Below are positions 395-42,753 of a stretch of DNA of 64,000 bases, one piece after another. Made by a program: the position numbers and the translations under genes. Location: contig DATALC010000054.1 of the NCBI GenBank assembly GCA_036261265.1, forward strand, positions 61,884-125,883, given 5' to 3'. Numbering within the stretch: the stretch's first letter is position 1; every line of letters starts with the position of its first letter. Below the pieces are notes generated by a model. It ran no database searches. It had not been told where the DNA came from and saw nothing but the letters and a program-made list of their open reading frames with translations. Origin of the DNA: Bacteroidales bacterium (lineage in GTDB: Bacteria; Bacteroidota; Bacteroidia; Bacteroidales; VadinHA17).

Positions 395-2179
395 ATGGAT
401 AATTTTATTGTTTCCGCAAGAAAATACAGACCTGCCAGCTTCGATATGGTCGTTGGCCAGGCTTCTATTACAAATACACTTAAGAGCGCCATAAAAAACA
501 ATAAGCTGGCACATGCCTATCTTTTCTGCGGACCTCGTGGCGTTGGGAAAACAACTTGCGCAAGGATCTTTGCAAAAACGATTAACTGCAGCAACATAAC
601 AGCAGACTTTGAAGCCTGTGACAACTGCGAATCGTGCAAATCCTTTAATTCACTCCGGTCATTTAATATACATGAGCTTGATGCTGCATCAAATAATAAG
701 GTTGAAGATATTAGAAGCCTGAATGATCAGGTCAGGATACCTCCGCAGGTAGGTAAATACAGCGTATATATAATTGATGAGGTTCACATGCTTTCTTCAT
801 CTGCTTTCAATGCTTTCCTGAAAACTCTTGAAGAACCTCCGGCTCATGCTATTTTTATACTTGCAACTACTGAAAAACATAAAATAATTCCGACAATTCT
901 GTCACGTTGTCAGATTTTCGATTTTAACAGGATCAAAATCGAGGACATTGTTTCAAGGCTCATGTTTGTTGCCCGGCAGGAAGGAATTGATGCTGCAGAG
1001 GAGGCTCTACATGTTATTGCCCAGAAAGCAGACGGCGCTATGCGCGATGCCCTGTCAATATTCGACCAGATTGCAAGTCTTTGTGACAGGAAGATCGCAT
1101 ATAATGATGTGATTGAAAATCTGAATGTACTTGACTATGAGTATTATTTCAGGTTGGTTGATGCGGCTCTTATGGGCGATGTATCATCAGTATTGCTTAC
1201 TTTCAATGAAGTGCTTGAAAAAGGTTTTGACGGGCATAATTTCATTTCAGGTCTCAATAGTCATCTTCGCGATCTGCTTGTGAGCAGGGATGAAGTTACT
1301 CTCAGGCTTCTTGAAGCCTCACCAGTAGTGAAACAGAGATATCTTCAGCAGACAGGCAGATGTACTCCTGATTTCCTTTTCAGAGCATTGGAGACTGGAA
1401 ATAATTGTGACCTGAATTACCGTAACAGCAAGAATCCGCGACTGATTGTGGAACTTGCATTGATAAAGCTCTGCAGGCTTCAGAACGGAAACGGAACTGA
1501 ACCGGAAAAAAAAAAGCCTGACAATGTAGGTCTGCCTGAAAATCACCAAAAGGTCGCTCAGAAAGATACTGTTTCCCCTTCAGTAGCAAAAGAAGCTGGA
1601 AAGAAGATTGACCCGGTTAATCCGGAAAATGAACATTCATCTCGTGAAAGCTCGCCTGATGCTGTCGCTCCACATGCAACCCATGAGCCTAAAATTGAAC
1701 GTCCGGTTAAATCATTTTCTATTAAAAATCTGCTGAACGACAACCCCGTGGTTGAAGTGAAGAAGGATAAATCTGTAACTGAACAAGTCACAAGTGAAAC
1801 TAATGATTCAAGAGCTGACTTCAACGCTGATGCATTTGCTGAAGCCTGGAATGATTTCGTTGAACAGCTTGAAGGCGAAGGCACCAGGATTGTGAGTATG
1901 TTCAAATCAGTTAAACCTGAAATTGAGGATGACAATACGATTAGGATTCATCTCCATAATGCAACCCAAAAAGATACTTTTGTACTAAATTATAAGCAGA
2001 GACTTATAAGCTTCCTTGAAAGCAGATTCAAAGTTCCAAATCTGGATATACTCACTGCTGTCGATCAGACTGAAGAGGAGGAAATTCTGTATACAGATGA
2101 GCAGAAACAGAATTATCTGTTTGGCAAATACCCGGGTCTGAAAGACATGAAAAAACTGTTCAATCTTGATATTCCCTGA
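395..2179 (+). CDS. dnaX: DNA polymerase III subunit gamma/tau
   Basis: Walker A GPRGVGKTT, Walker B IIDEVHML, sensor SRCQ, and the zinc module CDNCESC. The conserved clamp-loader core is followed by a low-complexity acidic/lysine-rich C-terminal half. Start moved to the first ATG (MDNFIVSARKYRP). Confidence 0.93.
   Translation: MDNFIVSARKYRPASFDMVVGQASITNTLKSAIKNNKLAHAYLFCGPRGVGKTTCARIFAKTINCSNITADFEACDNCESCKSFNSLRSFNIHELDAASNNKVEDIRSLNDQVRIPPQVGKYSVYIIDEVHMLSSSAFNAFLKTLEEPPAHAIFILATTEKHKIIPTILSRCQIFDFNRIKIEDIVSRLMFVARQEGIDAAEEALHVIAQKADGAMRDALSIFDQIASLCDRKIAYNDVIENLNVLDYEYYFRLVDAALMGDVSSVLLTFNEVLEKGFDGHNFISGLNSHLRDLLVSRDEVTLRLLEASPVVKQRYLQQTGRCTPDFLFRALETGNNCDLNYRNSKNPRLIVELALIKLCRLQNGNGTEPEKKKPDNVGLPENHQKVAQKDTVSPSVAKEAGKKIDPVNPENEHSSRESSPDAVAPHATHEPKIERPVKSFSIKNLLNDNPVVEVKKDKSVTEQVTSETNDSRADFNADAFAEAWNDFVEQLEGEGTRIVSMFKSVKPEIEDDNTIRIHLHNATQKDTFVLNYKQRLISFLESRFKVPNLDILTAVDQTEEEEILYTDEQKQNYLFGKYPGLKDMKKLFNLDIP
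1506..1515 (+). other. A10 homopolymer inside dnaX (candidate frameshift / transcriptional slippage site)
   Basis: Frame 0 reads GAA AAA AAA AAG CCT (EKKKP). The -1 frame reads GCC TGA and the +1 frame reads AGC CTG ACA ATG TAG. The run lies just after the conserved core ends (..LIKLCRLQNGNGTEPEKKK). Confidence 0.45.
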
Positions 2180-2337: not shown

Positions 2338-5300
2338 ATGAGTATCATAAACAGTGTCCTGGGTATTTTTCTCGGGAACAAATATGAGAGGGACATTAAA
2401 GAAATCAACCCTTATGTTGAAAAAATACATGAAGCTTTTGAACAGATTGGTTCCCTGTCGAATGACGAATTAAGAGACCGGAGTGATGCGCTCAGGAGTG
2501 AGATTCGTAAAAGCGTTGAAAATCTCGAAAATGATATATTGAACCTTCGTCAGCAAGCTGAAAAGGAAGAAAATGTTGATAAGAAGGAAGAGACCTACAA
2601 TCAGATCGATAAGCTTGAAAAGCAGATCGATGAAAAGCTTGAAGAAACTCTTGATAAGGTGCTCCCGGAAGCATTTGCGATTGTAAAAGAAACAGCAAAA
2701 CGATTCAAGGAGAACAGTGTTATTGAGGTAACAGCGCGACAATTTGACAGGGATCTGGCTGCCACCCGTGAAAGCATCACTATAGAAGGAGATAAGGCGC
2801 TCTGGAAAAACAAATGGATGGCGGGCGGTAATGAGATAACATGGGATATGGTGCATTACGATGTCCAGTTGATAGGTGGTGTGGCTCTTCATAAGGGGAA
2901 AATTGCAGAAATGGCAACAGGGGAAGGAAAAACTGTCGTTGCCACACTTCCGGTCTTCCTTAATGCGCTTGCAGGAAGAGGAGTACATATTGTCACTGTA
3001 AATGACTATCTATCAAAACGCGACTCCGAATGGATGGGGCCAATGTATGAATTCCACGGGCTCTCTGTAGATTGTATTGACAAGCACCAGCCTAACTCTG
3101 CTGAAAGGCGTAAAGCATATAATGCAGATATTACTTTCGGAACAAATAATGAATTCGGATTCGATTACCTGCGTGACAATATGGCAATCAATCCTGAGGA
3201 CCTTGTTCAGAGAAAGCACCATTATGCAATTGTCGACGAGGTTGACTCGGTTCTCATCGATGATGCACGTACCCCTCTTATTATATCAGGTCCAACTGCA
3301 AAAGGTGAAAACCAGCTTTTCGATGAGCTTAAGCCGAAAGTTGATAAGCTTGTAGCTGCACAAAGAAAGCTCGTGACCCAGATTCTTGCTGATTCAAAGA
3401 AACTCATTGCTGAGGGCAAGAATGAAGAAGGAGGTATGCTTCTGCTCAGAGCTCATAAAGGTCTGCCAAAGAATAATGCGTTAATAAAATTCCTAAGCGA
3501 GGAAGGAAACAAATCTCTTCTTCTCAAGACCGAAAATTTCTACATGCAGAACAACAGCAAGGAAATGCCGAAGGTCACTGACGAATTGTATTTCATTATC
3601 GATGAGAAAGCTAATTCTATCGAACTCACCGAAAAAGGTATTGATCTTGTCTCTACTTCAGTTGAAGACGCCAGCTTCTTTATTCTCCCCGATGTGGGCT
3701 CTAAAATTGCTGATCTTGAGAAATCAGAATTAACAGAGAGAGAAAAGCTTCTGAAAAAAGATGAACTGCTTCAGGATTATGCAGTCAAATCAGAACGCGT
3801 ACATACGATGACCCAGTTGCTCAAAGCCTGGACTCTCTTCGACAAGGATATCGAATATGTTGTTATCGATAATAAGGTCAAGATTGTTGACGAGCAGACA
3901 GGACGTATTCTTGAAGGAAGAAGGTATTCGGACGGTCTGCACCAGGCAATAGAAGCTAAGGAAAATGTGAAAGTCGAGGCTGCCACGCAGACTTATGCAA
4001 CAATAACGCTCCAGAATTACTTCCGTATGTACCACAAGCTTGCAGGTATGACAGGAACCGCTGAAACAGAAGCCGGCGAATTCTGGAATATATATAAGCT
4101 CGATGTAGTTGTCATCCCGACAAATAAACCAGTTATAAGAACCGACAGGGAAGATCTAGTCTATAAGACAAAGCGCGAGAAATATAATGCAGTAATAGAT
4201 GAGATTTCGGAGATGTACAAGCAGGGACGTCCTGTACTTGTCGGGACAACATCAGTTGAAATATCAGAGCTCCTTAGCAGGATGCTTAAGATGAAGGGGC
4301 TCAAGCATAACGTTCTTAATGCAAAGCTTCACCAGCGTGAAGCCGAGATCGTTGCCGAAGCAGGAAAGAAAGGAACAATTACGATTGCCACAAACATGGC
4401 CGGCCGTGGTACCGATATTAAGCTGACTGAAGAGGTTAAGAAGGCCGGAGGTCTTGCAATTATAGGCACTGAGAGGCATGAATCGCGCAGGGTCGACAGG
4501 CAGTTGCGCGGACGTTCAGGAAGACAGGGAGACCCGGGATCATCACAGTTCTTTGTCTCGCTCGAAGATGAGCTGATGAGATTGTTCGGGTCGGACAGGA
4601 TAGCAGGAATAATGGATAAGCTCGGACTTAAGGAAGGAGAGATGATCCAGCATCCGATGATTACAAAGTCTATCGAACGTGCCCAGAAGAAAGTAGAAGA
4701 GAATAACTTCGGTATAAGGAAGCGTCTGCTCGAATATGATGACGTTATGAACTCTCAGAGAGAGGTTATCTACAAAAAACGCCGTCATGCCCTTCTTGGT
4801 GAACGGCTCAGTGTCGACATAGCCAACATGATGTATGATGTGACCGAAAACCTTGTCGGTACCTATCATGAGGATACTGATTTTGATGGCTTTGAGCTGG
4901 AGCTGCTGCGCTCATTCTCGATGGAATCACCTGTCAGGGAAGAAGAATTTAAGAAGGACAATGCCTCTGAAATAACAGAAAATGTTTATGTAAAGGTCCT
5001 TGATGCCTACAAAAGAAAGGTCGAAGCAATTTCTGCCCAGGCTTACCCTGTTTTGAAAGATGTTTATGAAAGGATGTCTCATGTTTATGAGAATGTAGTT
5101 GTTCCAATAACCGATGGCGTCAGGGTTTACCAGGTGATAACAAACCTCAGGGCTACAGCTGAATCAGGTGGTGTCGAGCTTGCCCGCGCTTACGAAAAAA
5201 CTATTGTCCTTGCTACAATCGACGATGCCTGGAAAGAGCACCTTCGGGAAATGGATGAGTTGAAACAGTCAGTTCAGAATGCCACTTATGAACAGAAAGA

Positions 5301-5643
5301 TCCGCTTCTTATTTACAAGTTCGAGTCGTTTGAGCTCTTCAAGACGATGCTCATTAAAGTGAATAAGGAAGTTGTGAGTACATTGATGAAAGGTCATATT
5401 CCAACACAGGATCCCGAACAGGTAAAAGAAGCTCAACGAAGAAGAAATGTCGACATGAGCCGTATGAAAACCTCAAGGAGCGATTCATCACAGCTCAGCA
5501 CCGGCGGACAGGAAAATCAGAGACCGCCTGAACCCGTAAGAGTCGAAAAGAAAGTAGGTAGAAATGATCCGTGCCCATGCGGAAGCGGGAAGAAATATAA
5601 ACAATGCCACGGGGCTCAGCAGGGTACGCCGGCTAATGCCTGA
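2338..5643 (+). CDS. secA: Preprotein translocase ATPase SecA
   Basis: 1101 aa with MATGEGKT (Walker A), [28 protein letters not shown], and the C-terminal zinc finger [14 protein letters not shown]. Confidence 0.97.
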
Positions 5644-42673: not shown

Positions 42674-42753
42674 AATGTTGTTAAGTTTATTTCATCTATA
42701 CAATATTCATTTTTTTTTACACTTTTTTCCTTTTAAGAGTCTTTTGTAAAAGG

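Follow-up and report, generated by a model that had tools for sequence, protein, structure and literature searches.

The dnaX gene of bacteria can give rise to two forms of DnaX, the full-length tau and a shorter gamma that shares the N-terminus of tau. In Thermus thermophilus this occurs by transcriptional slippage at a run of A's, as was shown experimentally (Larsen et al. 2000 PNAS, as described in PMC1088944 and PMC5009743), and according to the same descriptions mRNAs with other than 9 +/- 3n A's terminate at near stops in both frames. In Caulobacter crescentus gamma is made by proteolysis of tau (as cited in PMC5009743). Using GeneTack, Antonov et al. 2013 (PMC3711429) reported 17 dnaX genes from 12 genera that consist of two open reading frames (ORFs), a 'new structural type', none of which was annotated as a programmed frameshift in RefSeq. 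Fig. S3 of that paper aligns the A10 runs of Flavobacterium johnsoniae, F. psychrophilum, Cytophaga hutchinsonii, Capnocytophaga ochracea, Chlorobium, Prosthecochloris, Pelodictyon and Coraliomargarita to the Thermus site. Here we analyse an A10 run in the dnaX gene of a Bacteroidales bacterium (VadinHA17), located on a 64,000-nucleotide stretch of DNA that we call the window (assembly GCA_036261265.1, contig DATALC010000054.1, positions 61,884 to 125,883). We consider it very likely that this site is a selected recoding signal which yields a short DnaX by some form of slippage, and likely that it is a programmed transcriptional slippage site of the Thermus thermophilus dnaX type, giving gamma and tau.

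The A10 run of dnaX in the window

dnaX is the first gene of the window. Its protein matches the NCBIfam model PRK14971, 'DNA polymerase III subunit gamma/tau', with 777 bits, and its name in the public record is 'DNA polymerase III subunit gamma/tau' only. The TIGR02397 (dnaX_nterm) match spans residues 6-360 and the Pfam matches are DNA_pol3_delta2, DNAX_ATPase_lid and DNA_pol3_gamma3 (domain III, residues 238-363). E. coli DnaX is 41% identical to the window protein across residues 3-284. The sequence at 1499-1530 is GAACCGGAAAAAAAAAAGCCTGACAATGTAGG, with the A10 at 1506-1515, approximately 8-10 codons past the end of the structured core (amino acids (aa) ~360-363). The features of the gene, in window coordinates, are as follows.

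395..2179, + strand: dnaX coding sequence, from the ORF and its translation (ATG at 395, stop codon at 2177-2179; 594 aa); tau-like full-length product by standard decoding
395..1483, + strand: clamp-loader core, domains I-III, aa 1-363, common to both predicted products (Pfam domain III ends at aa 363, TIGR02397 at aa 360)
1506..1515, + strand: A10 homopolymer, candidate slippage site, codons 371-374; zero frame GAA(371) AAA AAA AAG(374) CCT GAC
1510..1516, + strand: in-frame A_AAA_AAG heptamer (slippery site of the E. coli dnaX type) inside the A10, from sequence and frame
1517..2176, + strand: tau-specific part (low-complexity linker and C-terminal domain), not in the predicted short product; from translation; homologs conserve the C-terminal region, and two-ORF relatives have this part in the -1 frame
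1519..1521, + strand: TGA in the -1 frame (one extra A or a -1 shift), after 1 codon; predicted product ...EKKKA, 375 aa
1527..1529, + strand: TAG in the +1 frame (one fewer or two extra A's, or a +1 shift), after 4 codons; predicted product ...EKKSLTM, 377 aa

The original prediction, made from the letters of this stretch, had placed the A10 at 1506-1515 in codons 371-374 of 594, and every coordinate and translation that it gave was correct. Translation confirmed that an extra A or a -1 shift leads to ...KKK Ala TGA, and that one fewer A or a +1 shift leads to ...K K Ser Leu Thr Met TAG. The zero frame of the window stays open for 221 codons past the run, which places the gene outside the two-ORF type of Antonov et al. 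In an independent Logan assembly of SRR12844103 the gene is identical throughout, including the A10, and an assembly artefact is therefore unlikely.

The A10 is the longest homopolymer in the 64 kb of the window, which has a GC content of 40.6%. The second longest is a T9 at 42710-42718 and all others are 8 or shorter. We used ORFs of at least 150 aa as a proxy for coding sequence, which cover 94% of the window. The dnaX A10 is the only run of at least 9 within these ORFs; the T9 is intergenic and lies outside them. There are seven stretches of at least three Lys codons in the window, and only the one in dnaX is unbroken, the other six being split by AAG (longest A-run 3-6) even though AAA accounts for 62% of Lys codons in the window (68% in relatives). 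The genome thus avoids long A-runs in coding DNA except at dnaX. The dnaX A10 is not a chance occurrence.

Conservation of the run and of nearby off-frame stops

The relatives were drawn from 80 species-representative genomes (whole-protein best-segment identity ~48-81%) and 80 metagenome contigs (36-71%), giving 158 analysable dnaX loci, namely 157 relatives (~36-81% identity) and the window. The metagenome scan was aimed at close relatives and returned distant ones, and serves as a measure of breadth rather than of population variation. A run of A9-A12 was found near the boundary between domain III and the linker in 102 of the 158 loci. A10 is the most frequent length (70 loci), followed by A11 (20), A9 (10) and A12 (2). 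Relative to the end of domain III, the run lies at approximately -4 to +16 codons, and at +30 in a single outlying locus. By comparison, domains I-III of dnaX contain no run of at least 9 across the loci (169 kb), and flanking ORFs (105 kb) contain four A9 and none longer.

The linker of the 120 best protein homologs (68-75% identical, from Bacteroidales metagenome-assembled genomes (MAGs)) varies freely around a near-invariant E-K-K-K. In the wider set of 102 run-bearing loci the encoded peptide varies (EKKK in 34, EKKN in 18 and VKKK in 8, with QKKK, LKKK, EKKT and others also present), the run occurs in codon phases 0, 1 and 2 in 12, 65 and 25 loci respectively, and 25 loci have the run without coding for KKK. 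Conservation is thus stronger for the nucleotide run than for the amino acids it encodes. Where Lys triplets do occur, they are unbroken in 78 of 86 cases at the boundary and in only 2 of 14 elsewhere (0 of 6 in the window and 2 of 8 in flanking genes; Fisher P = 9e-9). These patterns indicate that selection acts on the nucleotide run and not on the Lys peptide.

Both alternative frames are closed shortly after the run. Among the 87 run-bearing loci in which tau is encoded by a single ORF, the median distance to a stop is 1 codon in the -1 frame and 4 codons in the +1 frame. As a null, we drew positions from the same linkers, which matches their composition; this replaced an earlier whole-gene null, as the composition of the linker differs, and the conclusion was the same. 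A stop lies within 1 codon or less in the -1 frame in 48 of 87 loci (null 0.18) and within 5 codons or less in the +1 frame in 66 of 87 (null 0.26). Both frames are shut within 6 codons or less in 75 of the 87 (null 0.13; binomial P ~2e-53), and in 55 of 64 after thinning to unique downstream hexamers. The sequences that provide these stops differ among loci (GCCTGA, GACTGA, TCCTGA, CAGTGA, CTTTAA, GATAA and others). In the closest clade, the '[PS]-[DE]' that follows EKKK is the zero-frame reading of NNT-GAN, the source of the TGA in the -1 frame. The comparison as a whole shows strong nucleotide-level purifying selection across Bacteroidota on the run, its position and both near off-frame stops.

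The run might alternatively involve no recoding and simply follow from a conserved linker rich in Lys and a genome that leans towards AT, with stops that are incidental or limit the cost of errors. AAA is indeed the commoner Lys codon, and off-frame stops are frequent at 40% GC. However, the peptide is not conserved where the run is, as the 25 of 102 loci without KKK illustrate, other KKK stretches avoid unbroken runs (in the window and in flanking genes alike), and off-frame stops exceed the linker null 5-6 fold. A single synonymous AAG would end any cost of slippage, yet it is almost never seen. The run is also kept in 15 loci where it breaks the tau frame. We regard this explanation as strongly disfavoured and very improbable. 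The original prediction had itself cautioned that a KKK linker in an AT-rich genome could create such a run by chance and that off-frame stops are common. This caution is rejected here, given that the run is the only coding run of at least 9 in the window, is conserved in 102 of 158 loci and is followed by stops beyond the null expectation. The alignment of dnaX that it proposed as a check came out in its favour: A9-A12 is kept while linker, phase and peptide vary, with stops near in both frames.

The 102 run-bearing loci have two layouts. In 87, including the window, tau is in frame in a single ORF, and in 15 the layout is reversed into two ORFs (examples are L061, L078 and L142-L147). In the 15 two-ORF loci a stop closes the N-terminal frame 0-6 codons past the run; the C-terminal part of tau is found in the -1 frame in 14 of them, and L130 alone has it in the +1 frame. 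For instance, L061 (A11) and L078 (A10) read ...LALIRMAQLT[Q/V]KKK-stop, with tau onward in the -1 frame. The two closest genome relatives of the window, L020 (A10) and L057 (A9), which are ~81% identical to it in the N-terminal core, keep the run and are one A short of the tau frame, so that tau is in the -1 frame. Either these two loci have true two-ORF alleles or their homopolymers were miscalled, which is plausible for L057, as its genome belongs to a series of long-read MAGs.

Differences in run length could also reflect phase variation at the DNA level, in which replication slippage alters the run, so that cells would switch from an allele for tau to one for gamma and back. Long homopolymers mutate readily, species differ in the length of the run (A9-A12), and the close relatives L020 and L057 are one A short of the tau frame. 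On the other hand, dnaX is essential for replication, and cells with tau switched off would not survive unless slippage occurred at the level of RNA or protein. The two independent assemblies of the organism agree on A10, closely related loci have runs of equal length, and changes in length go together with changes in frame (for example L114, L125 and L141; L144-L146). The L057 difference may be a homopolymer miscall. Phase variation is accordingly the explanation to which we give the least credence, and we consider it extremely unlikely.

Neither layout can work unless decoding departs from the templated frame in a large fraction of cases. A tentative model, for which the balance is close to even without quite tipping in its favour, is a frame-neutral switch in Bacteroidota: A9-A12 would slip in nearly half of transcripts, it would barely matter which product is templated, and lineages would drift between the two layouts by single-A insertions and deletions and could even move the site, as in L138. 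If this were true, dnaX of this phylum would be the most widespread programmed transcriptional realignment in an essential cellular gene, and its run lengths (9-12) would form a natural series for the effect of length on the gamma:tau ratio. In L138 the boundary run is absent, and an A11 followed by a TAG is located ~79 codons past the domain III boundary. The slippage site of this locus may have been relocated, recalling the more distal position of the E. coli site.

Proposed transcriptional slippage and ribosomal alternatives

Under the reading that we favour, transcriptional slippage, RNA polymerase on the ten A's (T's in the template) would realign the short and weak rA:dT hybrid and so produce mRNAs with 9, 10, 11, 12 or other numbers of A's. 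Transcripts with 10 (or 10 +/- 3n) A's would encode the full-length tau of 594 aa. Other numbers would lead into a frame that ends within 1-4 codons, giving a gamma-like protein of ~375-377 aa. This short protein would approximate the minimal clamp-loader core (domains I-III) and would lack both the linker and the C-terminal domain of tau. The crystal-structure constructs of E. coli gamma/tau end at 368-373, and the window protein is offset from E. coli by +1-2 over aligned residues 4-284, which is why a 375-aa product would be close to the minimal core. The tau-specific C-terminal part of E. coli comprises the helicase- and polymerase-binding domains.

Bacterial RNA polymerases slip at run lengths of 9, and coding runs of this length are avoided in many bacteria (Baranov 2005, PMC1088944). 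The conserved runs have a floor at this same length, which is also that of the Thermus A9. Together with the independence of codon phase, the closure of both frames and the interconvertible layouts, this floor is best accounted for by transcriptional slippage. The window has the full set of sequence features of the Thermus type, with an A-run of at least 9 past the core, tau in one ORF, stops in both frames and selection at the nucleotide level. Slippage probably occurs, is probably transcriptional in the main rather than translational, and the short product probably works like the gamma of E. coli and Thermus.

Programmed -1 ribosomal frameshifting of the E. coli type would give the same short protein from homogeneous mRNA: AAA-AAG would slip back on the heptamer at 1510-1516, GCC would be read and UGA would terminate a 375-aa gamma. 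The heptamer is in the right frame with UGA one codon later, a layout like gcA_AAA_AAG_AGU_GA of E. coli, and no feature of the family is placed as tightly as the -1 frame stop, with its median of 1 codon. Furthermore, the E. coli heptamer supports ~14-16% shifting in vitro when unaided (bioRxiv 10.1101/2025.10.02.679949). The elements that stimulate the E. coli shift are not seen here, however. In agreement with the original prediction, which saw no convincing downstream stem-loop, the 60 nucleotides downstream of the run fold no better than shuffled sequence (-9.3 kcal/mol, z +0.16; z +0.48 for 100 nucleotides), and the downstream folds of 55 loci carry no signal (mean z -0.58). With E. coli as positive control the Rfam DnaX element RF00382 scored 96.8 bits (gathering score 35); in positions 1-2400 of the window it had no match at E<=0.1. 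The only Rfam hit in this region at that threshold was a spurious SNORD25 match on the minus strand. By inspection of 1466-1505 (...cagaacggaaacggaactgaaccgg), none of the Shine-Dalgarno (SD)-like motifs AGGGAG, GGAG or AGGAGG occurs upstream of the run, and E. coli has AGGGAG. SD pairing is little used in Bacteroidota, and these bacteria usually have a tRNA-Lys(CUU), which makes A_AAA_AAG less shifty; both points count against such a frameshift. There are no tRNA genes in the 64-kb window, and the tRNA-Lys repertoire is thus not read from it.

The family data also argue against a purely ribosomal -1 shift. The heptamer is in frame in only 26 of the 102 run-bearing loci, so it is not the conserved feature, and in 56 of them the run is directly followed by C or T. 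Seven A's would be enough for such a shift, yet the conserved length is at least 9 with a mode of 10. A pure -1 shift needs one closed frame, and the +1 frame is also closed well beyond chance. We therefore consider this mechanism unlikely.

A second ribosomal alternative is that ribosomes pause on the AAA codons of a poly(A) Lys tract, slide in either direction and terminate at near out-of-frame stops. E. coli ribosomes slide on homopolymeric A and give truncated products at stops in either frame (Koutmou 2015, PMC4363877), and sliding would explain both the closure of the two frames and the independence of codon phase. Its weak points are that 80 of the 102 runs are only A9 or A10, and that the Thermus dnaX A9, the case analysed experimentally, is assigned to transcription in the accounts cited above. 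We judge it quite improbable. The preference of the original prediction for transcriptional slippage over a stimulated ribosomal shift is thus backed, albeit indirectly, by the lack of structure and of an RF00382 match, by the heptamer being in frame in 26 of 102 loci and by the length floor at 9.

Several points weigh against programmed transcriptional slippage giving gamma and tau. We found no transcript or protein data in the literature for dnaX of this organism or of any Bacteroidota. The run contains a perfect in-frame A_AAA_AAG with UGA one codon on, as in E. coli, which makes a ribosomal contribution possible, and the closure of both frames equally fits ribosome sliding on poly(A). Because the loci share ancestry, the P values overstate their independence; even so, synonymous sites have reached saturation over such distances, and the closure result survives thinning. 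Finally, the run is missing from 56 of the 158 loci, and about a third of the loci, mainly gut Bacteroides, Phocaeicola and Prevotella types, carry no stretch of at least 9 A's anywhere in dnaX; a short product derived from the run is therefore not universally required. These gut types either make tau only or produce the short form by another route. Run-less loci of the gut Bacteroides/Phocaeicola/Prevotella type include L046, L060, L066, L070, L079, L082, L083, L086 and L089-L092.

Two observations concern the sequence directly upstream of the run. A small hairpin at 1476-1503 (GGCUUCAG...CUGAACC) ends 2 nucleotides before the A-run, with a 60-nucleotide fold of z -1.9. Nascent-RNA hairpins upstream of slippage motifs act as stimulators in some insertion sequence (IS) elements. 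The family does not conserve this hairpin (mean z of the upstream folds -0.28 in 55 loci). In the Flavobacteria-like metagenome loci L114, L124-L126, L128, L129, L141, L144-L146 and L157, ATGGAG (with an SD-like GGAG) is located directly 5' of the run, and the Thermus site has GGGAG directly before its run (Antonov 2013 Fig. S3, PMC3711429). ATGGAG may be coding for Met-Glu only or may be a pausing signal.

Elsewhere near dnaX, a 9-bp tandem repeat TAAAGTTTG (6.7 copies, 92% match) occupies 159-218, in the intergenic sequence that precedes dnaX, ~180 nucleotides from the start codon. The repeat may serve as a promoter or a regulatory array, or may be there by chance. Directly downstream of dnaX, at 2338-5643 on the + strand, is an ORF of 1101 aa that looks SecA-like by eye and has a C-terminal zinc-binding motif.

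Comparison with described dnaX systems

The A10 dnaX motif of Bacteroidetes/Chlorobi was already predicted in 2013 (Antonov, PMC3711429) and the window is a further case of a known type. That paper was the only one that we found on dnaX slippage in Bacteroidetes, with no later paper. The comparison widens the 2013 prediction, which covered a few frame-broken genes, to genes with a single ORF, the more common form where the run is present. For recoding specialists this pattern will be a modest and expected extension rather than a surprise. If the short product is made, the clamp loader of these bacteria would contain both a long and a short DnaX, like that of E. coli and of Thermus, which bears on the debated role of gamma. 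There is also a consequence for annotation, as two-ORF relatives risk being taken for pseudogenes or assembly errors.

The two-ORF genes of Antonov et al. share with the window the gene, the A10 motif, the phylum or superphylum (FCB group) and the proposed mechanism, and their layout was found in 15 of our relatives. They differ in that gamma is their standard product and tau needs the shift, whereas the window is the reverse. GeneTack finds frame-broken genes only, which explains why the single-ORF form (87 of the 102 run-bearing loci) was missed by that screen.

The E. coli dnaX frameshift (RF00382) resembles the window in the gene, in a short gamma with the N-terminus of tau, and in an in-frame A_AAA_AAG followed by one residue and UGA. 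In contrast, the window has no stem-loop, no SD-like stimulator and no match to the model, and its conserved element is a homopolymer of at least 9 rather than a heptamer. The original prediction had placed the run at the same domain boundary as the E. coli site, which is true insofar as both sites lie past the core and before the tau-specific part. The exact positions do not coincide: the E. coli shift site (codons ~428-430) is ~55-60 codons past the core and that of the window ~8-10, so the window site lies ~55-60 codons earlier relative to the core. Judged by these features, the window site is not a member of the E. coli RF00382 class.

Caulobacter also has a short DnaX without the C-terminal domains, but it arises post-translationally and there is no slippery nucleic-acid signal. 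This route shows that the two-product DnaX outcome is under selection in diverse bacteria.

The closest resemblance is to Thermus dnaX. As far as that system is described in the accounts cited at the outset, both genes have a single ORF with tau in the templated frame, a sense A-run past the core and closure of both alternative frames, and neither requires an RNA stimulator. The hexamer directly after the run, GCCTGA, is the same in the window and in the Thermus site (Antonov 2013 Fig. S3, PMC3711429). The window differs in having A10 rather than A9, in belonging to the Bacteroidota (Bacteroidales) and in being known from sequence alone.

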